Below are positions 1 to 7,919 of a stretch of DNA of 7,919 nt, piece after piece (position 1 is the stretch's first letter; every line of letters begins with the position of its first letter). The notes beneath the pieces were generated by a model, which worked only from the letters and a program-made list of their open reading frames with translations, did not search any database and was not told the origin of the DNA. This stretch comes from a virus. Taxonomy: Duplodnaviria; Heunggongvirae; Uroviricota; Caudoviricetes. A program made the position numbers and the translations under genes. The stretch is from positions 1 to 7,919 of IMG/VR virus record IMGVR_UViG_3300029095_000201; one strand, given 5' to 3'.

Positions 1-377
1 CGAAAACAGCCATCAATGAAGCCCTGCGCAGAATGAAAAAAGCGGGAATAGAGAAAGCTGAGCTGGAAGCGTTTTTGCGAGAGATGATCAACGGCAAGCA
101 AAAGAGCTGGCTGGCGCATTGTACTGATGCAGAGGCGTTATGTATTGATCGAGTCATAAGTGAGGTGCTGGCAGAGCATCCTGGATTGATTAGTGTCCTC
201 CGGCAACGGTATGAAGGACGGGGGATGACTAAGCGCAAAATGGCTGAATTGCTAAATGATGCACATCCTGAGTGGTGTTTTAGCACATGCGAAAAGCGAA
301 TTGCTAATTGGTTGGCTGTTGCTGAGTATGCCCTATATATTCCCATGCGAGAATCATTTGCTCAAAAAATAGCTTGA
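1..377 (+). CDS. Putative late-gene antiterminator (Q-like), C-terminal portion; 5' end truncated by the window edge
   Basis: The frame of the listed ORF 33-377 stays open back to base 3, so the gene begins upstream of the window. The call rests on position (immediately upstream of a terminator-containing leader and the lysis cassette), not on recognised sequence; I do not recognise the Q family from this C-terminus. Confidence 0.45.
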   Translation, partial: KTAINEALRRMKKAGIEKAELEAFLREMINGKQKSWLAHCTDAEALCIDRVISEVLAEHPGLISVLRQRYEGRGMTKRKMAELLNDAHPEWCFSTCEKRIANWLAVAEYALYIPMRESFAQKIA

Positions 378-402
378 TTTTTTACGCATAAACTGCTTCA
401 AT
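374..402 (+). promoter_or_regulatory. Candidate late promoter (PR-prime-like): -35 TTGATT (374-379), 17-bp spacer, -10 TTCAAT (397-402)
   Basis: Hexamers read directly from the sequence, overlapping the stop codon of the upstream ORF. The -10 is a weak match (4/6). Placement fits the lambdoid arrangement where the late promoter lies just after Q and before a terminator. Confidence 0.2.
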
Positions 403-460
403 TCCGGTATGCTTCGCAAAGCTGTATCGCGAGGCGAACCAAGCGCATGAACTTTACCAG

Positions 461-490
461 AACCCGCCATTGAGCGGGTTTTGTTGTTTC
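461..490 (+). terminator. Rho-independent terminator (tR-prime-like) downstream of the Q-like gene
   Basis: 7-bp stem AACCCGC (461-467) / GCGGGTT (474-480), 6-nt loop CATTGA, followed by the T-rich tract TTGTTGTTTC (481-490). The reverse strand lacks a U-tract, so it is + strand only. Confidence 0.6.
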
Positions 491-561
491 TGGTACTGGT
501 GAACCTGATGTTTCATTTCTGGAGCGCGATTCCTGGCGGAATACCTAGAATCGAGACATTC

Positions 562-570
562 TGGTAAAAT
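562..570 (+). promoter_or_regulatory. Candidate extended -10 promoter element (TGgTAAAAT) for the downstream cargo gene
   Basis: TG at 562-563 and TAAAAT at 565-570, about 30 nt upstream of the start at 599, downstream of the 461-490 terminator. No good -35, which is tolerated with extended -10 elements. Sequence-only prediction. Confidence 0.3.
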
Positions 571-598
571 TGTTTTCAGTACAGGATGTGGAGGTGAG

Positions 599-1168
599 AT
601 GAGAGAACTACCTAAAGATTATTTTTTAGGAGTAGATGATGAGCTCGTCGATTATCTTGAAAAACAAGGGGAAGAGACGATACGAGAGATTCATCTTTCT
701 AACAAAACCAATGTTGAGAATGGATACAAACTTCTGAACATTCAGATTGTTGGAATTGGTTCATCTTTTTTATTGCTGACACAGAAAACTAATTTCGATT
801 TTCTCACCGCCGGAATTACCACATTTACATTACTATGGACATGGTGCGCCATTTACTTGGTATGTACTGGTTTATCTGTGAAGGTTAGGGGCCTGATCAA
901 TGCCCCTCCTGATCATATATATCATGAAAAATATAAGGATATGGAGCCCTCGAGCTTTAAAATATTCGCTGATGCAGGATATTTAGGACCTGATAAGTTA
1001 TTGCCGCTTATACGAAGGTATCGCCTTGTTGACTTGAGTGATACAGCAAGAGAGTTACTGTTGGAAAATGAGAAAATCCGCACGAGTCTCGATAAAGCAA
1101 GGATGTATACCATCCTTGCTCCGGTAGCGGCGATGTTTATCTCGGCTGTTTTTTTATATGTTCAATGA
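599..1168 (+). CDS. Hypothetical integral membrane protein, 189 aa, cargo (moron) gene between Q and the holin
   Basis: ATG at 599 preceded by a strong SD GGAGG (590-594, 4-nt spacer). The translation has three hydrophobic helix-length segments (IQIVGIGSSFLLL; FLTAGITTFTLLWTWCAIYLVCTGL; C-terminal MYTILAPVAAMFISAVFLYV) with a charged N-terminus and a roughly 80-aa charged segment between helices 2 and 3. Visibly AT-rich relative to the flanking lysis genes. No family recognised. Confidence 0.6.
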   Translation: MRELPKDYFLGVDDELVDYLEKQGEETIREIHLSNKTNVENGYKLLNIQIVGIGSSFLLLTQKTNFDFLTAGITTFTLLWTWCAIYLVCTGLSVKVRGLINAPPDHIYHEKYKDMEPSSFKIFADAGYLGPDKLLPLIRRYRLVDLSDTARELLLENEKIRTSLDKARMYTILAPVAAMFISAVFLYVQ

Positions 1169-1298
1169 CTGAGTCGGCAGAATCTCCAACAAAAACACGA
1201 CGTGTAGCAAAGTCTGTAGTACTTTGTGTTGGAGTTGGTTTTGGTGCCACGGGTTGCTGAGGTTTATTTTCACCTTGTGGTTTGTTTTTTTCAGACAT
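1137..1298 (-). CDS. Small hypothetical protein, 53 aa (MSEKNKPQGENKPQQPVAPKPTPTQSTTDFATRRVFVGDSADSVIEHIKKQPR), convergent with and overlapping the 3' end of the 599-1168 gene
   Basis: Internal ATG (complement of 1296-1298) within the listed 130-aa minus ORF, preceded by a strong SD AAGAGGA (complement of 1303-1309, about 4-nt spacer). Pro/Gln-rich hydrophilic N-terminus, no hydrophobic segment. Overlaps the + strand gene by 32 bp (1137-1168). No family recognised; could be a chance ORF in a 3' UTR. Confidence 0.4.
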   Translation of the reverse strand: MSEKNKPQGENKPQQPVAPKPTPTQSTTDFATRRVFVGDSADSVIEHIKKQPR

Positions 1299-1392
1299 AA
1301 AAATCCTCTTTGTTTGAATTGTTACTTTTGGCGATTTAACGATATCAAACACGAGTATATACCGCCAGAAGCTTAATCTGGCACTCCATCTG

Positions 1393-1420
1393 GCCCCGGC
1401 ATGTCCCGGGGCTTTTTCGT
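1393..1420 (+). terminator. Rho-independent terminator between the cargo locus and the holin gene
   Basis: GC-rich 7-bp stem GCCCCGG (1393-1399) / CCGGGGC (1406-1412), 6-nt loop CATGTC, followed by TTTTT (1413-1417). The reverse strand has no U-tract after the stem. Confidence 0.55.
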
Positions 1421-1515
1421 TGTTAGGCTCTGGAAACATCCTCGACTTCTTGTTAGCAAGCCTGAGAGCCTGAATCTTACACTTAGCACCATCCGAACTC
1501 TCGGAGGTGAGGCTT

Positions 1516-1857
1516 ATGAAAATGCACAATGCCCCTCATTCCTGGCCTGACTTACTGGAACTCTTACAAAGTTGGTGGCGTGGAGATACGCCGCTGGGTG
1601 CAGTGGTTATGTCAATTATTATGGCTGGTTTGCGCATTGCCTATTTTGGCGGTGGCGGCGGCTGGAAACGAAAAACGCTTGAGATTCTGCTTTGTGGTGC
1701 TCTGACGCTGACCTTTGCATCCGCGCTTGAGTATGTCGGATGGCCTAAATCACTTTCTGTTGCCATTGGTGGTGGGGTGGGGCTGATTGGTGTTGATGCT
1801 ATTCGTGGTGCGGCAATGAGGGTCATCGGTAACAAGTTCGGTGCCCATAAGGAGTAA
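1516..1857 (+). CDS. S: Holin, class I (three predicted TM segments), lambda S-like with a Met-Lys-Met dual-start motif
   Basis: Sits immediately upstream of the endolysin gene. SD GGAGG at 1503-1507. Begins MKMHN..., i.e. two in-frame Met codons separated by Lys as in the lambda S107/S105 holin/antiholin pair (from memory). Three hydrophobic segments and a charged C-terminal tail. I prefer ATG 1516 over the GTG 1507 of the ORF track because GTG 1507 overlaps the SD. Confidence 0.8.
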   Translation: MKMHNAPHSWPDLLELLQSWWRGDTPLGAVVMSIIMAGLRIAYFGGGGGWKRKTLEILLCGALTLTFASALEYVGWPKSLSVAIGGGVGLIGVDAIRGAAMRVIGNKFGAHKE

Positions 1858-1860
1858 TTA

Positions 1861-2337
1861 ATGCAGACACTTAATTCCCAGCGTAAAGCTTTCCTTGATA
1901 TGGTGGCATGGTCAGAAGGAACAGATAACGGACGGCAGAAAACCAGAAATCACGGTTATGATGTTATTGTCGGTGGCGAACTGTTCACTGATTACTCCGA
2001 TCACCCCCGCAAACTTGTCACGCTAAATCCGAAACTCAAATCAACAGCCGCTGGACGTTACCAGCTTCTTTCACGCTGGTGGGATGCCTACCGCAAGCAA
2101 CTTGGCCTGAAAGATTTTTCTCCAGAAAGTCAGGATGCTGTAGCGCTGCAGCAGATTAAAGAGCGTGGCGCTTTGCCGATGATTGATCGCGGTGATATCC
2201 GTCAGGCTATCGACCGTTGCAGCAATATATGGGCTTCACTGCCGGGCGCTGGTTATGGTCAGTTCGAGCATAAGGCTGACAGTCTGATTGCAAAATTCAA
2301 AGAAGCTGGCGGAACGGTCAGAGAGATTGAGGTATGA
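1861..2337 (+). CDS. R: Endolysin R (lambda-type lytic transglycosylase), 158 aa
   Basis: The translation matches lambda R as I recall it almost residue for residue ([48 protein letters not shown]...). SD AAGGAG at 1848-1853. Stop overlaps the Rz start in an ATGA junction (2334-2337), as in lambda. Confidence 0.9.
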
Positions 2338-2793
2338 GCAGAGTAACCGCGATTATCTCCGCTCTGGTTATCTGCATCGTCGTCTGCCTGTCATGGGGTG
2401 TTAATCATTACCGTGATAACGCCATCGCCTACAAAGAACAGCGCGACAAAAATGCCAGAGAACTGAAGCTGGCGAACGCGGCAATTACTGACATGCAGAT
2501 GCGTCAGCGTGATGTTGCTGCGCTCGATGCAAAATACACGAAGGAGTTAGCTGATGCGAAAGCTGAAAATGATGCTCTGCGTGATGATGTTGCCGCTGGT
2601 CGTCGTCGGTTGCACATCAAAGCAGTCTGTNNNNNNNNNNNCCACCACCGCCTCCGGCGTGGATAATGCAGCCTCCCCCCGACTGGCAGACACCGCTGAA
2701 CGGGATTATTTCACCCTCCGGGAACGACTGGTAATGATGCAGGCCCAACTTGAAGGTGCTCAGCAATACATAACCGAGCAGTGTTTAAAGTAA
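2334..2793 (+). CDS. Rz: Spanin Rz (inner-membrane i-spanin); reading frame broken only by the N-run at 2631-2641
   Basis: N-terminal 99 aa ([21 protein letters not shown]...[10 protein letters not shown]) match lambda Rz as recalled. After the N-run the Rz C-terminus ([29 protein letters not shown]...EQCLK) continues in a frame shifted by +1, ending at TAA 2791-2793. The shift is explained if the N-run stands for a different number of bases, not by a real frameshift. Confidence 0.85.
2554..2734 (+). CDS. Rz1: Spanin Rz1 (outer-membrane lipoprotein o-spanin), embedded in the +1 frame of Rz
   Basis: Starts [20 protein letters not shown] with a lipobox (VVGC) and signal peptide. After the N-run the proline-rich C-terminus [29 protein letters not shown] reads in the matching shifted frame, ending at TAA 2732-2734. 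The embedded arrangement is the established lambda Rz/Rz1 architecture. Confidence 0.8.
2631..2641. other. Run of 11 ambiguous bases (N) inside the Rz/Rz1 overlap, i.e. a masked or unresolved stretch
   Basis: Directly visible. Both Rz and Rz1 shift by the same +1 across it, so the true length is congruent to 1 modulo 3 (10, 13, 16...). Comparison with lambda Rz as recalled (AVC-QSVREA-TTASG) suggests 16 nt. Confidence 0.95.
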
Positions 2794-2930
2794 AATCTTA
2801 ACTACAATATGATTCATTTTGATGATTGTTTCATAAGGAACAGTGAAGTAAGATCTAAGAGGAGTTAAATTTTATACAGTATAATCATAATATTGCAGCA
2901 AGGTGGTTATAATTGAAAGAATATTTAGAT

Positions 2931-4388
2931 ATGAATACATCTCATGTAAGAGTTGTTACTCATATGTGTGGGTTCCTGGTTTGGCTCTATAGTCTTTCAA
3001 TGTTGCCACCAATGGTTGTAGCATTGTTTTATAAAGAAAAAAGCCTGTTCGTTTTCTTTATAACTTTCGTTATATTTTTTTGCATTGGTGGCGGAGCGTG
3101 GTATACAACTAAGAAATCTGGCATTCAATTACGTACCCGTGATGGGTTTATTATAATTGTAATGTTTTGGATTTTGTTTTCTGTTATTAGTGCATTCCCT
3201 TTATGGATTGACTCAGAACTTAATTTAACGTTCATTGATGCTCTGTTTGAAGGGGTTTCTGGAATAACAACAACAGGAGCAACTGTAATTGATGATGTTA
3301 GTTCATTACCTCGGGCATATTTGTACTATCGGTCACAGTTAAATTTTATAGGTGGTTTAGGAGTTATTGTTCTGGCGGTTGCTGTATTGCCATTATTGGG
3401 TATTGGTGGTGCAAAGCTTTATCAGTCAGAAATGCCGGGGCCATTTAAGGATGACAAACTCACTCCCCGCCTGGCCGATACGTCACGGACACTGTGGATA
3501 ACTTATTCTTTATTAGGTATTGCTTGTATTGTCTGTTATAGACTTGCAGGAATGCCTTTGTTTGATGCTATTTGTCACGGGATTTCCACAGTTTCGCTTG
3601 GTGGTTTCTCAACTCATAGCGAGAGTATCGGATATTTTAATAACTATTTGGTTGAGCTGGTGGCTGGTTCTTTTTCCCTGCTATCGGCTTTCAACTTCAC
3701 TCTTTGGTATATTGTTATTAGCAGGAAAACGATAAAACCTTTAATCAGAGATATTGAACTTCGTTTCTTTCTGTTAATAGCCTTAGGGGTGATCATTGTT
3801 ACCTCTTTCCAGGTCTGGCATATAGGTATGTATGACTTGCATGGAAGTTTTATTCATTCGTTTTTTCTTGCCAGCTCCATGCTCACTGATAATGGTTTAG
3901 CTACGCAGGATTATGCAAGTTGGCCCACGCACACGATAGTGTTTTTGCTGTTGTCAAGTTTCTTTGGGGGATGTATAGGTTCAACTTGTGGTGGAATTAA
4001 GTCACTTCGATTTCTTATACTTTTCAAACAAAGCAAACACGAGATAAATCAGCTTTCTCATCCCAGAGCGTTGTTGAGTGTAAATGTAGGAGGGAAGATA
4101 GTTACAGATCGTGTAATGAGGTCTGTATGGAGTTTCTTTTTTCTTTATACTCTCTTCACGGTGTTTTTTATACTGGTGTTAAATGGTATGGGATATGATT
4201 TTCTTACATCATTTGCAACAGTGGCTGCATGTATTAATAATATGGGATTAGGTTTTGGGGCTACTGCATCGTCATTCGGAGTGCTTAATGACATTGCAAA
4301 ATGTTTAATGTGCATAGCTATGATTCTTGGTCGCCTTGAAATTTATCCTGTTATTATATTGTTTTCAGGTTTTTTTTGGCGCTCCTAA
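2931..4388 (+). CDS. trkG: Trk-system potassium uptake protein TrkG (TrkH/KtrB family membrane subunit), 485 aa from ATG 2931
   Basis: Multi-pass membrane protein with TrkH-type motifs recognisable against E. coli TrkH as recalled (GITTTGATV, EMPGPFKDDKLTPRLADTSRTLW, GGCIGSTCGGIK, MILGRLEIYPVIILFSGFFWRS). Strongly AT-rich, as described for trkG of the Rac prophage. An alternative TTG start at 2913 has the better SD (AAGGTGG at 2900-2906); ATG 2931 gives the 485-aa length I recall for K-12 TrkG. Confidence 0.9.
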   Translation: MNTSHVRVVTHMCGFLVWLYSLSMLPPMVVALFYKEKSLFVFFITFVIFFCIGGGAWYTTKKSGIQLRTRDGFIIIVMFWILFSVISAFPLWIDSELNLTFIDALFEGVSGITTTGATVIDDVSSLPRAYLYYRSQLNFIGGLGVIVLAVAVLPLLGIGGAKLYQSEMPGPFKDDKLTPRLADTSRTLWITYSLLGIACIVCYRLAGMPLFDAICHGISTVSLGGFSTHSESIGYFNNYLVELVAGSFSLLSAFNFTLWYIVISRKTIKPLIRDIELRFFLLIALGVIIVTSFQVWHIGMYDLHGSFIHSFFLASSMLTDNGLATQDYASWPTHTIVFLLLSSFFGGCIGSTCGGIKSLRFLILFKQSKHEINQLSHPRALLSVNVGGKIVTDRVMRSVWSFFFLYTLFTVFFILVLNGMGYDFLTSFATVAACINNMGLGFGATASSFGVLNDIAKCLMCIAMILGRLEIYPVIILFSGFFWRS

Positions 4389-4474
4389 TATATGGCTGAT
4401 TTATAATTGTGAGTTTAATATTATGTTGACTCACTCATTGATCCAATACCTAACTTTACCAGCAACACCTCCGT

Positions 4475-4510
4475 CCCCAGTAGCACTGGCTGCTGGGGTG
4501 CGTTTTATTC
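4475..4510 (+). terminator. Rho-independent terminator downstream of trkG
   Basis: 10-bp stem CCCCAGTAGC (4475-4484) / GCTGCTGGGG (4489-4498) with one G-U pair, 4-nt loop ACTG, followed by TGCGTTTTATTC. Confidence 0.5.
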
Positions 4511-4525
4511 ATAAAGCAAGGCTGT

Positions 4526-5317
4526 ATGAGCGAGAAATTAAAGATAGTCTATCGCCCATTACAAGAATTGTCACCGTATGCGCACAACGCCAGGACGCAC
4601 AGTACTGAGCAGGTGGCACAACTGGTAGAAAGTATTAAGCAATTCGGCTGGACTAATCCGGTGCTGATTGACGAAAAGGGCGAAATTATTGCGGGTCACG
4701 GTCGTGTTATGGCGGCTGAAATGCTCAAAATGGATTCTGTTCCGGTCATTGTTCTGTCTGGCCTGACGGATGAGCAGAAAAAGGCGTACCGCCTGGCAGA
4801 TAATCGCCTGCCGATGAATGCTGGCTGGGATGAAGATCTGTTGCGGATGGAGCTGTCGGACCTAATCAATGCTGATTTTGATGTCTCCCTGACAGGCTTC
4901 ATCCCGACAGAAATTGATGAACTGTTGACGGATGTTTTGCCCGGTACAGGAAATGAGGAGGAGCCGTATACGACGAAAATTGATACGCCTGTTTATGAGC
5001 CGTCGGGCGGTAAACCGGATATCAGTGAACTGTACGACGATACGAAAACTCAGGAGCTGATCAGCCGGATACGTTCGGCGTCCCTTGAGCCTGATATTGA
5101 GAAATTCCTCCTGTGTGCGGCAGAACGTCACACGGTGTTTAATTTCAGCAGAATTGCGGACTATTACGCTCACGCCCCCTCTGAAATTCAGTGTTTTTTC
5201 GAGGAGTCGGCGCTGGTGATCATTGATTATCAGCAGGCTATTGAAAATGGATTTGTCCGGATGACGCAGCGCATGGTGGAGATCATGCATGGTGGTGAGG
5301 AGGAGGAATATGCGTGA
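4526..5317 (+). CDS. ParB-like nuclease-domain (ParB/sulfiredoxin superfamily) protein, 263 aa, with an uncharacterised acidic C-terminal half
   Basis: N-terminal 100 aa carry the ParB N-domain signature (IVYRPLQELSPYAHNARTHS...; LIDEKGEIIAGHGRVMAA with the GxGR box). Likely the intact counterpart of the short Rac ynaK gene, but I cannot verify identity. The C-terminal 140 aa end in EEEEYA with no recognised domain. Stop overlaps the next gene start by 8 nt. Confidence 0.7.
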   Translation: MSEKLKIVYRPLQELSPYAHNARTHSTEQVAQLVESIKQFGWTNPVLIDEKGEIIAGHGRVMAAEMLKMDSVPVIVLSGLTDEQKKAYRLADNRLPMNAGWDEDLLRMELSDLINADFDVSLTGFIPTEIDELLTDVLPGTGNEEEPYTTKIDTPVYEPSGGKPDISELYDDTKTQELISRIRSASLEPDIEKFLLCAAERHTVFNFSRIADYYAHAPSEIQCFFEESALVIIDYQQAIENGFVRMTQRMVEIMHGGEEEEYA

Positions 5318-6242
5318 TGATTTTTGCGCCTTTATTCTGACTCACGGGCGACCGGACAAAGTTCTGACTTACCGGACGTTGCGTCGTGCTGGCTATACCG
5401 GGAAAATTTTTATCGTTGTTGATGATGAAGATAAGACACGGCATCAGTACATGGCTGAATTTGGTGAACAGGTGCTGGTGTTTTCCAAAGCCGATATCGC
5501 CAGTCGTTTTGACGAAGCCGATAATTTCTGTGACCGCCGCTCAATTTTTTACGCCCGTAATGCCTGTTTCGACCTGGCAAAACTGGTCGGGTGTAAATAC
5601 TTCATTCAGCTCGATGATGATTATCACGAGTTCCAGTTTCGGGTGGATCGCAACTATGACCAGGCCTATTTTCCGATAAGGAAACTGGATGCGATCCTTT
5701 CTGAAATGCTGGCGTACTACGAATCAATACCTGCTCTTTCCATCGCTATGTCGCAGGGCGGGGATTTTCTTGGTGACAATGGCGGCCATGCTTCGTGGGT
5801 GAAACGCAAGGCAATGAACAGCTTTATCTGTTCGGTTGATCGACCGTTCTCATTCATGGGGCGCATTAACGAGGATGTGAATACGTACACGAATCTCGGT
5901 CGCTGTGGTGAATTGTTTATGACGATCGGTGCTGTCCAGTTAGGGCAGAAACAGACGCAGAAAAACAGCGGCGGAATGACCGAGCTGTATCTGGATTCCG
6001 GAACCTACGTTAAAAGTTTTTACTCCGTCATGTATGCGCCGTCGTGCGTAAAAATCTCACTGATGGGTGCCAGCCATAAACGCATTCACCATCAGGTCAC
6101 CTGGAACAACGCTGCAGTAAAAATCCTTCACGAAAAATACAGGAAGAAGACACCCTGCATATCAATGGGGGTGACAAATGATTCCGTATTCGAAAGTCGA
6201 GTCTCTGGCAGCGTGCCGGATGACTGCACAACAAATCGCTGA
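5310..6242 (+). CDS. Hypothetical protein with GT-A-like features (putative nucleotide-sugar-dependent glycosyltransferase), 310 aa from ATG 5310
   Basis: Start ATG 5310 chosen over the track's 5289 because of the SD run GAGGAGGAGG (5297-5306). The N-terminus has a strand-loop-helix-strand pattern (CAFILTHGRPD ... KIFIVVDDEDKT) and a later acidic triplet (YFIQLDDDY) resembling the GT-A DxD metal/sugar-nucleotide site. No hydrophobic membrane segments. Fold assignment is inference from motifs only. Confidence 0.5.
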   Translation: MRDDFCAFILTHGRPDKVLTYRTLRRAGYTGKIFIVVDDEDKTRHQYMAEFGEQVLVFSKADIASRFDEADNFCDRRSIFYARNACFDLAKLVGCKYFIQLDDDYHEFQFRVDRNYDQAYFPIRKLDAILSEMLAYYESIPALSIAMSQGGDFLGDNGGHASWVKRKAMNSFICSVDRPFSFMGRINEDVNTYTNLGRCGELFMTIGAVQLGQKQTQKNSGGMTELYLDSGTYVKSFYSVMYAPSCVKISLMGASHKRIHHQVTWNNAAVKILHEKYRKKTPCISMGVTNDSVFESRVSGSVPDDCTTNR

Positions 6243-7113
6243 CGTTCTGGATGTTGATCTGAACCGACTGAAAGAAAATCGGGAAGCAATGACAGATTTT
6301 TATGCGGCTATCCGGTTTGATAAATATGACGGTAGCGCAACAACTTTTCTTGGTGATGCGTATATTGATACACAAACGCTTGAAATTAATATGACAGGCG
6401 GTGCTGCCTCAAGGATTACAGCGAGAGTCAGAAAGGACGAAGCTACCGGATGGATTTTTGCAGAGGCAACAATTCAGGCAATTGATGGGGAGTTAAAAAT
6501 AGGCTCTCAGATACAGTATTCTCCTAAGCAGAGCGGGGCAACCGTATCTGGTGACTATATTTATCTGGCCACCCCACAAGTAGAAGATGGGCCTTGTGTA
6601 TCATCTTTTATTATATCAGGAGCGACGGCGGCGACCCGCGCAAGCGATATAGTTACAGTTCCAATTAAGAATAATCTTTATAATCTTCCTTTTACGGTTC
6701 TTTGTGAGGTACATAAGAACTGGTATAAAACGCCAAATGCAGCGCCACGTGTTTTTGATACCGGCGGTCATCAAACCGGAGCGGCTATTATTCTTGGCTT
6801 CGGTCGTTCAACAGATTACGACGGATTTCCTTATTGCGATATTGGAGGAGCTAACAGACGGGTAAACGAAAACGCATCGCTTGAAAAAATGGTTATGGGG
6901 ATGCGTGTAAAGTCAGATCAGTCTACGTGCTCAGTAAGTAACGGGCGTATATCCAGCGAAACAAAAACCACATGGTCCTGTATTCAGAACACCGCAATTA
7001 TCCGTATTGGAGGCCAGACTACAGCCGGGTTACGTCATTTATTTGGTCATGTCAGGAATTTCAGAATATGGCACAAGGCATTGACTGATGCTCAGGTGGG
7101 GGAGTCAATCTAA
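6178..7113 (+). CDS. Hypothetical protein, 311 aa; C-terminal region resembles a concanavalin-A/LamG-like jelly-roll (lectin-like) domain
   Basis: ATG 6178 preceded by G-rich SD GGGGGTGA (6167-6174). The C-terminal motif IRIGGQTTAGLRHLFGHVRNFRIWHKALTDAQV resembles the terminal strands of LamG/ConA-like domains. The start overlaps the upstream gene by 65 nt; alternative in-frame ATGs at 6220 and 6289 lack good SDs. Domain call is weak inference. Confidence 0.45.
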   Translation: MIPYSKVESLAACRMTAQQIADVLDVDLNRLKENREAMTDFYAAIRFDKYDGSATTFLGDAYIDTQTLEINMTGGAASRITARVRKDEATGWIFAEATIQAIDGELKIGSQIQYSPKQSGATVSGDYIYLATPQVEDGPCVSSFIISGATAATRASDIVTVPIKNNLYNLPFTVLCEVHKNWYKTPNAAPRVFDTGGHQTGAAIILGFGRSTDYDGFPYCDIGGANRRVNENASLEKMVMGMRVKSDQSTCSVSNGRISSETKTTWSCIQNTAIIRIGGQTTAGLRHLFGHVRNFRIWHKALTDAQVGESI

Positions 7114-7394
7114 TGAAAGATTTAACACTCAAATTTGCCGACAGGGCCGACTTTTCGGCCTTTATGGAGAGTATTGGCTATTATGATGACGAGTCGATGC
7201 AGGATGATATTCTTATTGACGTGATAGGTAACGTGTACAAAGAAACCGGAGAACTGACTGAAGATGGCGAACCGGTATGTGTTAAGGAAGACGGATATTT
7301 TGTAAACGTGCGCATCATTAATGATGCAAAAAAATCGTCAATATTCGATAAATACGCGGTTGTTGTTGAGCATCAACTTCGTGGCTGGATGTGA
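7113..7394 (+). CDS. Small acidic hypothetical protein, 93 aa
   Basis: ATG overlaps the upstream stop (TAATG at 7111-7115). SD GGGGGAG at 7098-7104. No recognised family. Confidence 0.45.
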   Translation: MKDLTLKFADRADFSAFMESIGYYDDESMQDDILIDVIGNVYKETGELTEDGEPVCVKEDGYFVNVRIINDAKKSSIFDKYAVVVEHQLRGWM

Positions 7395-7403
7395 GGGAGA
7401 CAA

Positions 7404-7919
7404 ATGGCTACATCGACAGTAATTCCAGGAGATATCACCACGCTAAAGGGAGATGTCAGTAAAACTAAGGAAGATATTTCCTCAATTAACGGAAAAGTAT
7501 CAACGCTTCAGACTGATATGACCAGTGCAAAGCAGGATATCAGCACCAGATACACAAAAACTGAAGTTGATAATAAGCTGAAAAACAAAGTGGAAGTGAA
7601 CGATCTGGAAAGTGGTCGTTATGGCGGAGATTTTTATCCACTGACAGGTCGTGAAGCGTTTTATTTATGGAATTTGGCCACGACTACAGCGGCGGCAAAC
7701 CTTTATCTTAATCCTGACCCCGCAATTTCGTCTGTGCTGCGGTCAACATCGTCTATCCGCTATAAACATTCAGTAGAGACAATAGATTCAAAGCACGCTG
7801 ATCTCATTTTCAGGATGCGCCCTGTGTGGTACAGGTCACAATGCGAAAATGACAGGCGTGACTGGGGATTCTACGGATTGATTGCCGAGGAAGTAGGAGA
7901 AATTGCCCCTCAGTTTGTA
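7404..7919 (+). CDS. Coiled-coil fibre-like protein with a C-terminal intramolecular chaperone (peptidase S74-like) domain; 3' end truncated by the window edge
   Basis: ATG 7404 with SD GGGAGA (7395-7400). I translated the frame by hand to base 7919 with no stop. The N-terminal 60 aa have a heptad-like pattern (DITTLKGDVSKTKEDISSINGKVSTLQTDMTSAKQDIS). From about 7750 the sequence (SSIRYKHSVETIDSKHADLIFRMRPVWY...DWGFYGLIAEEVGEIAPQFV) resembles the S-x-R-x-K autocleavage site and start of the chaperone domain of phage tail fibres and tailspikes, as recalled. Confidence 0.6.
   Translation, partial: MATSTVIPGDITTLKGDVSKTKEDISSINGKVSTLQTDMTSAKQDISTRYTKTEVDNKLKNKVEVNDLESGRYGGDFYPLTGREAFYLWNLATTTAAANLYLNPDPAISSVLRSTSSIRYKHSVETIDSKHADLIFRMRPVWYRSQCENDRRDWGFYGLIAEEVGEIAPQFV

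Follow-up and report, generated by a model that had tools for sequence, protein, structure and literature searches.

A glycosyltransferase gene in a 7,919-nucleotide (nt) stretch of viral DNA (positions 1 to 7,919 of IMG/VR record IMGVR_UViG_3300029095_000201; hereafter the window) encodes a member of the TAGT (TET-associated glycosyltransferase) family and forms a two-gene cassette with the gene that precedes it. The latter encodes a partner protein, in which a ParB-like N-terminal domain (ParB_N) is followed by an unnamed C-terminal domain (C-domain). The pairing between TAGT and the C-domain is reciprocal and near-universal, and the two-gene cassette is essentially obligate. The family is known; the two-component arrangement is distinct, widespread and apparently undescribed, and it occurs without the usual precursor pathway. 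Our tentative interpretation, held with somewhat less than even confidence, is that the pair constitutes a self-contained, late-expressed phage glycosylation module, most likely acting on phage DNA before packaging.

The TAGT family is that of the T2/T6 enzyme adding the second glucose to glucosyl-hydroxymethylcytosine (glucosyl-hmC), and solitary homologues, whose function was called undefined, are present in 288 of 753 phage genomes (2026 study). Recent surveys left open the role of these solitary genes and of thousands of glycosyltransferase (GT) contigs without precursor genes. One large clade of the 'solitary' enzymes is not solitary, being locked to a specific partner domain that is usually carried on a ParB nucleoside triphosphatase module. 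A defined two-gene unit from an Escherichia coli prophage is easily testable, and whichever outcome it gave would be informative, be it a DNA modification not seen before, a glycosyltransferase gated by ParB or a protein-glycosylation system of phages. The TAGT family was reportedly defined by Iyer et al. in 2013; no description of the cassette or of the C-domain was found in the literature searched, and the family-founding paper might mention the association.

The transferase and its coupling to the upstream gene

The transferase matches the Pfam TAGT model (PF20691) with an E value of 3.4e-35 and 122.3 bits against a cut-off of 27.5, its amino acids (aa) 8-222 aligning with positions 4-205 of the 205 in the model, and PHROG 842 over its full length (6e-104). 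The AlphaFold2 (AF2) model (mean predicted local distance difference test score 77.6, above 90 in the core; predicted template modelling score 0.76) was compared by Foldseek with the PDB. The top 40 matches are all GT-A proteins (E 1e-5 to 2e-4), and among the 50 matches listed nearly all are GT-A glycosyltransferases, with two ADP-glucose pyrophosphorylase chains that belong to the same class of fold; SpsA, TarP (rank 22), GnT-I, ppGalNAc-T, chondroitin polymerase and glycogenin are among these neighbours. The predicted fold is GT-A. By sequence, no solved structure is detectable. There is no membrane segment in the protein, the highest 19-residue Kyte-Doolittle mean being 1.08. The soluble GT-A-like protein anticipated by an earlier note on this DNA is in this way supported, and the fold prediction, for which the note had named a fold outside the glycosyltransferases as the adverse outcome, returned GT-A. 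The acidic and strand peptides that it singled out are all present, FILTHGRPD at aa 8-16, IFIVVDDEDKT at aa 33-43 and IQLDDDY at aa 99-105.

In an alignment of transferases from Salmonella, Pantoea, Sphingomicrobium, Lactobacillus, Nocardia, Porphyromonas and Vibrio phages and the haloarchaeal virus HHTV-2, at 25-83% identity, R14, D102-D103-D104, K167, D189 and H260-H261 are invariant. An R...DDD...ED(Y/F) set has been described for phage DNA GT-A enzymes and for the trypanosome base-J glucosyltransferase, JGT (2023 preprint); the third motif of the present clade is E-D-V instead of E-D-Y/F. The strong hidden Markov model (HMM) match, the GT-A fold and the R...DDD...ED set are shared with the TAGT family at large (the T2/T6 enzyme, the phage 5-hydroxymethylcytosine (5hmC) GT-A enzymes, JGT and GREB1), and the transferase resembles the T2/T6-type enzymes in being soluble and phage-encoded. 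Relative to enterobacterial relatives, non-synonymous divergence (pN) is 0.12-0.27 and synonymous divergence (pS) is saturated at 0.7-0.9. From the conserved catalytic set and this divergence we conclude that the transferase is active and under strong purifying selection. Salmonella phage SPF_0923 encodes an identical (100%) protein, and the copies in induced E. coli phages are 99.7% identical.

PGAP calls the same 933-nt coding sequence, with the same start, in a near-identical E. coli locus, and names the product 'GREB1-related protein' or 'hypothetical protein'. A longer open reading frame (ORF) from the ATG at 5289 was set aside, both the conserved N-terminus M-R-D-D-F-C and PGAP favouring the start at 5310. 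The name 'beta-glucosyl-HMC-alpha-glucosyltransferase', given by PHROG 842 and RefSeq, proved not to be transferable, since there is no T-even match and no hmC is made. By tblastn from this clade no Tequatrovirus match was obtained at E<=1e-5 or at E<=0.01, and only Aeh1-like ones appeared, at E about 5e-3; unlike the TAGT systems acting on hmC or hydroxymethyluracil (hmU), the genome contains neither an enzyme producing hmC or hmU nor an alpha- or beta-GT. A misleading database name is thereby corrected.

The earlier note had placed the start of the transferase within the final codons of the gene before it, and had taken one purine run for both the Glu-rich tail of the upstream protein and the Shine-Dalgarno (SD) sequence of the transferase. 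Both points were confirmed, the first by PGAP as well: the partner ORF ends with GGT GGT, followed by GAG GAG GAG GAA and TAT GCG TGA, with the run GAGGAGGAGG preceding the overlap ATGCGTGA (Table 1). Among the distinct junctions of related loci, 27 have an 8-nt overlap of ATGnnTGA/TAG geometry and 12 an 11-nt overlap, and in most related loci purine-rich stretches encoding acidic tails precede the TAGT start. The claim of translational coupling to the ParB_N gene agrees with this overlap arrangement, which is conserved across phyla. Nearly all the related loci examined have the overlapping pair, and together with the Pfam score and the predicted fold this is far more than chance would give. 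An obligate, translationally coupled partner sets the enzyme apart from the characterised TAGT members, for which none has been reported. RNA structure masking the SD and the AUG was considered as a coupling device and rejected: the RNA of the window folds at -30.6 kcal/mol (z -3.4), and the structure is not kept in relatives, since across 12 of them only a 5-bp hairpin inside conserved codons persists, with no covariation.

Pairing, spread and the partner protein

About 240 loci were surveyed, ORFs being called in every one of them: annotated phages, 80 IMG/VR loci retrieved with the TAGT profile, 80 loci on GTDB contigs at one genome per species, and 79 more IMG/VR loci retrieved with the partner C-domain. 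In 87 of the 88 phage and IMG/VR loci, a partner homologue immediately precedes TAGT in the same orientation. Where the GTDB species genomes leave room upstream, the partner adjoins TAGT in 67 of 71 cases; in the other four it is found 0.15-1.6 kb upstream, with one inserted gene in three of them. When the search started from the C-domain, TAGT was encountered downstream in all 79 loci, directly so in 76. Fusions between partner and TAGT were not found, as no ORF matched both queries and no precomputed architecture combines PF02195 with PF20691.

The bacterial hosts include Enterobacteriaceae, Bacteroidota, Clostridia, Veillonella, Chlorobi, Desulfobacterota, Planctomycetota, Verrucomicrobiota, Acidobacteriota, Saccharibacteria, Alphaproteobacteria and Actinobacteria (a Nocardia phage), and archaea are represented by an archaeal metagenome-assembled genome (MAG) and by Haloarcula virus HHTV-2. 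TAGT identity is 46-59% across more than 12 phyla in the species-genome survey; the Nocardia phage and HHTV-2 have 41-48%, and the Porphyromonas phage has about 25%. Both genes are present at 80% of their length or more in 889 of 5,426 complete E. coli genomes.

This distribution bears on whether the acceptor lies at the cell surface. A DNA role and a surface role had been called equally possible by the earlier note, a balance that we do not maintain: the characterised TAGT members of phages and trypanosomes glycosylate DNA-linked hydroxyls, and a surface role is unlikely because the soluble enzyme occurs in viruses of Gram-negative, Gram-positive, candidate phyla radiation (CPR) and archaeal hosts. 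Glycosylation of the cell envelope by a prophage transferase, leading to seroconversion, has a precedent in prophage GT-A enzymes such as TarP, which modify wall polymers. We nevertheless find it scarcely credible here, since the protein has no hydrophobic segment, is accompanied by no flippase or Gtr-type partner as seroconverting and envelope glycosyltransferases are, its neighbours being the partner and terminase genes, is found as the same cassette in hosts whose envelopes are unrelated (archaea and CPR bacteria among them), and lies in a late lytic operon instead of in a lysogeny-expressed moron.

The N-terminal 135 residues of the partner have ParB-CDP, Noc and KorB as Foldseek neighbours (E about 1e-5), and residues N21, H25, G57-H58-G59-R60, R89, D92 and N93 are conserved in their alignment (A3). 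The domain shares its subtype with the one at the N-terminus of ParB-fused DNA methyltransferases, with matches to PADLOC MTase_II (1.5e-38) and to PHROG 498 (8.8e-51, aa 3-144). It shares with the canonical ParB, Spo0J, Noc and KorB CTPase clamps the N-terminal fold and the GxxR phosphate motif, whereas the helix-turn-helix (HTH) DNA-binding domain, the ParA neighbour and the ParA-binding motif of partition ParBs are missing, and the protein is strongly acidic and encoded in a phage late operon. Search for a known defence system by PADLOC gave only the ParB_N/MTase_II similarity.

The C-terminal half of the partner is the better conserved one. The family pattern consists of an invariant Y-(T/S)-x-K-x-x-x-P-x-Y-E-P, a helical domain (FLxxAAxRHxVFNY..IAxYY...SALVIIDF..AIxNG) and an acidic tail; in the window protein the helical domain reads FLxxAAxRHxVFNF..IADYY...SALVIIDY..AIxNG. 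When 1.84 billion representatives were scanned by HMMER with the C-domain alone, 1,180 clusters at 50% identity were obtained, 999 of them at E<=1e-10, and among the best 150 of the 1,180 matches the domain lies almost always at or near the C-terminus. It corresponds to no Pfam, NCBIfam or PADLOC family and has no significant structural neighbour. In about 125 non-redundant loci, the fusion of ParB_N and C-domain lies directly 5' of TAGT in 100 and farther upstream in three more. The constant element of the partner is this C-domain, dedicated to TAGT, while the ParB_N module is common but optional, and the protein is better described as an adaptor than as a 'ParB-like nuclease-domain protein'.

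Of the partner gene, E. coli K-12 has only nt 1-254 left, as ynaK, and it has no copy of the transferase; the origin of that fragment is thereby explained. The K-12 gene ydaY was considered as a transferase remnant and ruled out, as it derives from a tail-region gene.

Genomic setting and the nature of the acceptor

All ORFs within 8-10 genes of the cassette were clustered in 44 + 77 non-redundant loci, and Pfam searches on the cluster representatives gave no dioxygenase or ThyS homologue. Most often terminase genes follow the cassette closely, and in intact phages it heads the packaging operon. On the downstream side the recurrent genes encode small terminase subunits, which belong to several unrelated types, several types of large terminase, and portals; on the upstream side they are lysis genes in lambdoid phages and otherwise replication-recombination genes (single-stranded DNA-binding protein, SNF2, VRR-NUC and PcfJ). 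No neighbour beyond the partner and TAGT is universally conserved in the clustered loci. The several unrelated types of the downstream terminases argue for a target common to all these phages, such as DNA, and not for one structural protein. In T4-like Vibrio phages of 191-195 kb (pv27, locus L006 at 7459-7878, and relatives), the cassette lies in the replication module, away from the terminase, the partner consists of the C-domain only, and TAGT is extended at its N-terminus by about 35 aa.

We propose a model in which transferase and partner would be made in a fixed ratio and would associate through the C-domain of the partner. The ParB/Srx-fold nucleoside triphosphate (NTP)-binding domain, where present, would give the enzyme NTP-dependent access to, or residence on, double-stranded DNA (dsDNA), a role proposed by analogy with ParB-methylase fusions and ParB-activated thymine dioxygenases. 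The complex would modify replicated phage DNA just before packaging, and the sugar-modified DNA would resist host nucleases in the next host. With respect to the first analogy, ParB_N-fused phage DNA methyltransferases (PHROG 498, MTase_II; PMC12704722) have the same ParB_N subtype and the same enrichment in phages and prophages, although in the cassette the catalytic module is separate and is a sugar transferase, and ParB_N is joined to it through the adaptor domain instead of by fusion; a survey of the ParB-CTPase fold describes fusions to phage methyltransferases and to domains of unknown function and gives no glycosyltransferase link (PNAS 2025, PMC12704722). With respect to the second, thymine dioxygenases of phages are activated, specifically on dsDNA, by cognate ParB homologues that have no DNA-binding domain (O'Toole et al., PNAS 2026, PMC13229309). 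The ParB-dependent 5mYOX systems resemble the cassette in that a ParB homologue without an obvious DNA-binding domain stands beside a post-replicative DNA-modifying enzyme to which it is specific, often near terminase and GT genes; they differ in that the enzyme is a dioxygenase and not a glycosyltransferase (PMC13229309), the hallmark of the cassette being a distinct C-terminal domain able to occur without ParB_N. GT-A enzymes linked to 5mYOX glycosylate 5hmC, and ParB-like and terminase genes lie near the GTs (2023 preprint).

Several observations weigh against a DNA acceptor. No TET/JBP dioxygenase or ThyS-like hydroxymethylase is recurrent within 10 kb of the cassette in about 120 non-redundant loci, and no enzyme for a hydroxylated base is annotated in the intact 38.7-kb phage vB_EcoS-666R9 or in the other complete small phages examined. 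No cognate Fe(II)/2-oxoglutarate dioxygenase is present in the window and related loci, no dioxygenase or hydroxymethylase on the Pfam-annotated metagenomic contig L170, and no dCMP hydroxymethylase or alpha-GT in the lambdoid and other small temperate phages carrying the cassette. In a Vibrio jumbo phage with a C-domain-only partner, the 100 of 191 kb whose annotation was covered show only an ordinary thymidylate synthase beside dihydrofolate reductase. Since neither a 5-methylcytosine/thymine dioxygenase nor a hydroxymethylase is found in these phages, the acceptor would not be the usual 5hmC or 5-hydroxymethyluracil (5hmU). To our knowledge, the characterised DNA-acting relatives in the TAGT family all need a pre-formed hydroxyl, in 5hmC, 5hmU or a sugar, and we know of phage DNA glycosylation only after synthesis of 5hmC, 5hmU or 5-hydroxycytosine. 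The main weakness of the proposal is that the hydroxyl needed by those relatives cannot be made by these phages. Besides, phages such as c5 and phi adh were reportedly mapped with ordinary restriction enzymes, which would count against a genome-wide bulky modification. The earlier interpretation is supported in part, but the DNA base glycosylation that it suggested has no known acceptor, as no enzyme making 5hmC or 5hmU accompanies the pair.

The partner contributes further difficulties. It had been described as a DNA-binding protein with a ParB-like nuclease domain; the ParB/Srx NTP-binding fold stands, but fold comparison and domain searches gave no recognisable DNA-binding domain, and the protein has an isoelectric point of 4.5 and a net charge of -25. 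Moreover, nine loci that have space upstream, those of the Vibrio jumbo phages among them, encode a partner consisting of the C-domain only (131-149 aa), and no ParB_N lies within 10 kb; nine further such cases lie at contig edges. The about 65% of GT contigs without 5mYOX or ThyS were set aside as less obviously linked to DNA modification (2023 preprint). Finally, animal GREB1, itself a member of the TAGT family, is an O-GlcNAc transferase for protein.

The example of GREB1 introduces the main rival, a protein acceptor, which we regard as rather unlikely. The transferase would modify its own partner, in the manner of glycogenin, at the invariant Tyr/Thr of Y-T-x-K...P-x-Y-E-P, or, like GREB1, some other protein, and the glycoprotein or modified target would then act in infection. 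The constant companion of the enzyme is indeed a small acidic domain placed after a strictly conserved hydroxyl-rich peptide and kept when ParB_N is lost, and the loci contain no enzyme generating a DNA acceptor; the ParB_N subtype, however, is the one fused to DNA methyltransferases, and the place of the cassette, first in the packaging operon, is like that of phage ParB-methylase genes. Coupled translation would suit an enzyme-substrate or an enzyme-subunit pair, although stoichiometric co-translation is unusual for an enzyme and its substrate. The added GTs and methyltransferases described below resemble DNA hypermodification clusters, but the building of a glycan on protein would fit them too.

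Quite improbable, in our view, is another soluble acceptor, be it a nucleotide, a second messenger, an RNA or a metabolite shared by bacteria and archaea, whose glycosylation might for example disarm a defence signal, with the NTP-binding domain of the partner presenting the substrate. Small-molecule kinases (SerK, Srx) belong to the ParB/Srx fold, various NTPs are bound by that fold, the enzyme is soluble, its host range is universal and a DNA acceptor pathway is lacking; against this, the TAGT family offers no precedent, a late-operon site by the terminase would be odd for a counter-defence factor required early, and ParB_N is dispensable in some loci.

The neighbourhoods of 5mYOX genes, in which GTs (31%), ParBs (27%) and terminases (19%) are the commonest neighbours (PMC13229309), would also be compatible with a relic, that is, with an inactive pair left over from a ParB-dioxygenase-glycosyltransferase pathway after loss of the dioxygenase, and the prophage in the window is itself degraded. 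This we consider very improbable, because the pair without a dioxygenase is the rule across the surveyed loci, the catalytic residues are invariant, non-synonymous divergence is low against saturated synonymous sites, and both genes are complete in length in so many E. coli genomes.

Returning to DNA as the acceptor, the pair could do without a hydroxymethyl precursor and place the sugar directly on a canonical base, on a backbone position or on a DNA end, which we judge unlikely. Such a reaction would require the transferase to have an adaptor subunit of its own, in which the ParB NTP switch is optional. If true, both the modification chemistry and the control of a DNA glycosyltransferase would be undescribed, and about one in six complete E. 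coli genomes, as well as phages of many phyla, would encode them.

Some loci carry additional genes typical of modification pathways, which look like donor-synthesis and tailoring steps on a core two-gene unit. Tandem TAGT paralogues occur in Blautia and Hyphomonadaceae (L156, 9160-10858; L158, 3581-6161), the extra TAGT of L158 being fused to a class-I S-adenosylmethionine (SAM) methyltransferase, and in a Verrucomicrobia MAG (L161, 5883-6719) a C-domain-only partner and TAGT are separated by a free class-I SAM methyltransferase. In five loci (L164, 10837-11778; L156, 10830-11819; and three more) the gene directly after TAGT, ahead of the terminase genes, encodes a MoaA/SPASM-like radical SAM enzyme. 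Between partner and TAGT, three loci have a bifunctional protein with His_Phos_1 and cytidylyltransferase-like parts (L236, 2942-3895; L240, 4314-5309; L233), which in L233 is fused to the partner ORF; from this insertion it seems that some phages produce a nucleotide-activated donor themselves.

The window and its prophage

The DNA of the window represents the late region of a defective lambdoid E. coli prophage of Rac-like type; its features are collected in Table 1.

Table 1. Features of the window discussed in the text
Feature	Position	Strand	Remarks
Q-like DUF1133 fragment	33-377
189-aa ORF between Q-like gene and holin	599-1168		hydrophobic stretches; hypothetical in PGAP annotation of relatives
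Holin, lysozyme and Rz genes	1507-2800
trkG (TrkH-family K+ transporter) moron	2913-4388		between lysis genes and cassette
Terminator-like hairpin and T-run after trkG	4475..4508	+	10-bp stem with 7 GC pairs, then TGCGTTTTAT
Partner gene, 263 aa, full-length form of K-12 ynaK	4526..5317	+	ParB/Srx N-domain aa 1-135, linker, C-terminal domain, acidic tail
ParB/Srx-fold NTP-binding domain of partner	4526..4930	+	A3 invariant columns; MTase_II and PHROG 498 matches
TAGT-partner domain, aa 146-263	4961..5314	+	Y-T-x-K-I-x-x-P-x-Y-E-P, then helical domain, then acidic tail
GAGGAGGAGG, Shine-Dalgarno-like run, also encoding Glu-rich tail of partner	5297..5306	+	3 nt before ATG 5310
ATGCGTGA, transferase start overlapping partner stop	5310..5317	+	8-nt overlap
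TAGT-family GT-A glycosyltransferase, 310 aa	5310..6242	+	ATG 5310, TGA 6240-6242; PF20691, PHROG 842, AF2/Foldseek
Arg14 codon	5349..5351	+	invariant in alignments A1 and A2; R of R...DDD...ED set
Asp102-Asp103-Asp104 codons (DxD metal/nucleotide-sugar motif)	5613..5621	+	invariant across 25-100% identical relatives
Glu188-Asp189 codons ('ED' motif)	5871..5876	+	Asp189 invariant, Glu188 nearly so
Chimeric ORF marking deletion scar	6178..7113	+	terminase-associated small protein and tail-protein C-terminus

In the intact phage vB_EcoS-666R9 the gene order is trkG, ParB-like gene, transferase, a 70-aa protein, terS, terL and portal, continuing to the tail genes, and from this order it is concluded that the prophage in the window has lost the genes from terS to the tail tip. 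The scar is the chimeric ORF, which matches PHROG 309 (terminase small subunit) at aa 3-46 and PHROG 1419 (tail protein) at aa 40-311: its first 46 aa or so come from the small HTH protein encoded ahead of terS in intact relatives, in frame with about 270 aa of a tail-protein C-terminus, a part marked as pseudogene by PGAP. Both cassette ORFs are full length, and the same genes are present in complete phages elsewhere. Since terminase, head and most tail genes are gone, the cassette in the window is an intact but stranded remnant, expressed only if late transcription persists. The hairpin after trkG ends 18 nt before the start of the partner gene, which fits trkG being an inserted moron; the cassette would then depend on Q-antiterminated late transcription. 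The trkG region as a whole (2784-4508), with promoter-like sites on its 5' side and the strong terminator-like hairpin on its 3' side, resembles a classic moron in a late operon.

A run of 11 N (2631-2641) falls within the overlapping Rz/Rz1-type lysis genes and gives X residues in both frames, and a Pfam search with the 189-aa ORF upstream of the holin gave no match. In E. coli DP051 (L001, 6127-6384), the best match to the whole region, PGAP calls ynaK an incomplete pseudogene, while the ORF call gives the 263-aa frame. Downstream of the portal gene of vB_EcoS-666R9 (L002, 24893-26005), a head-morphogenesis protein is annotated as NAD+-asparagine ADP-ribosyltransferase and is possibly a further modifying enzyme of the late operon.

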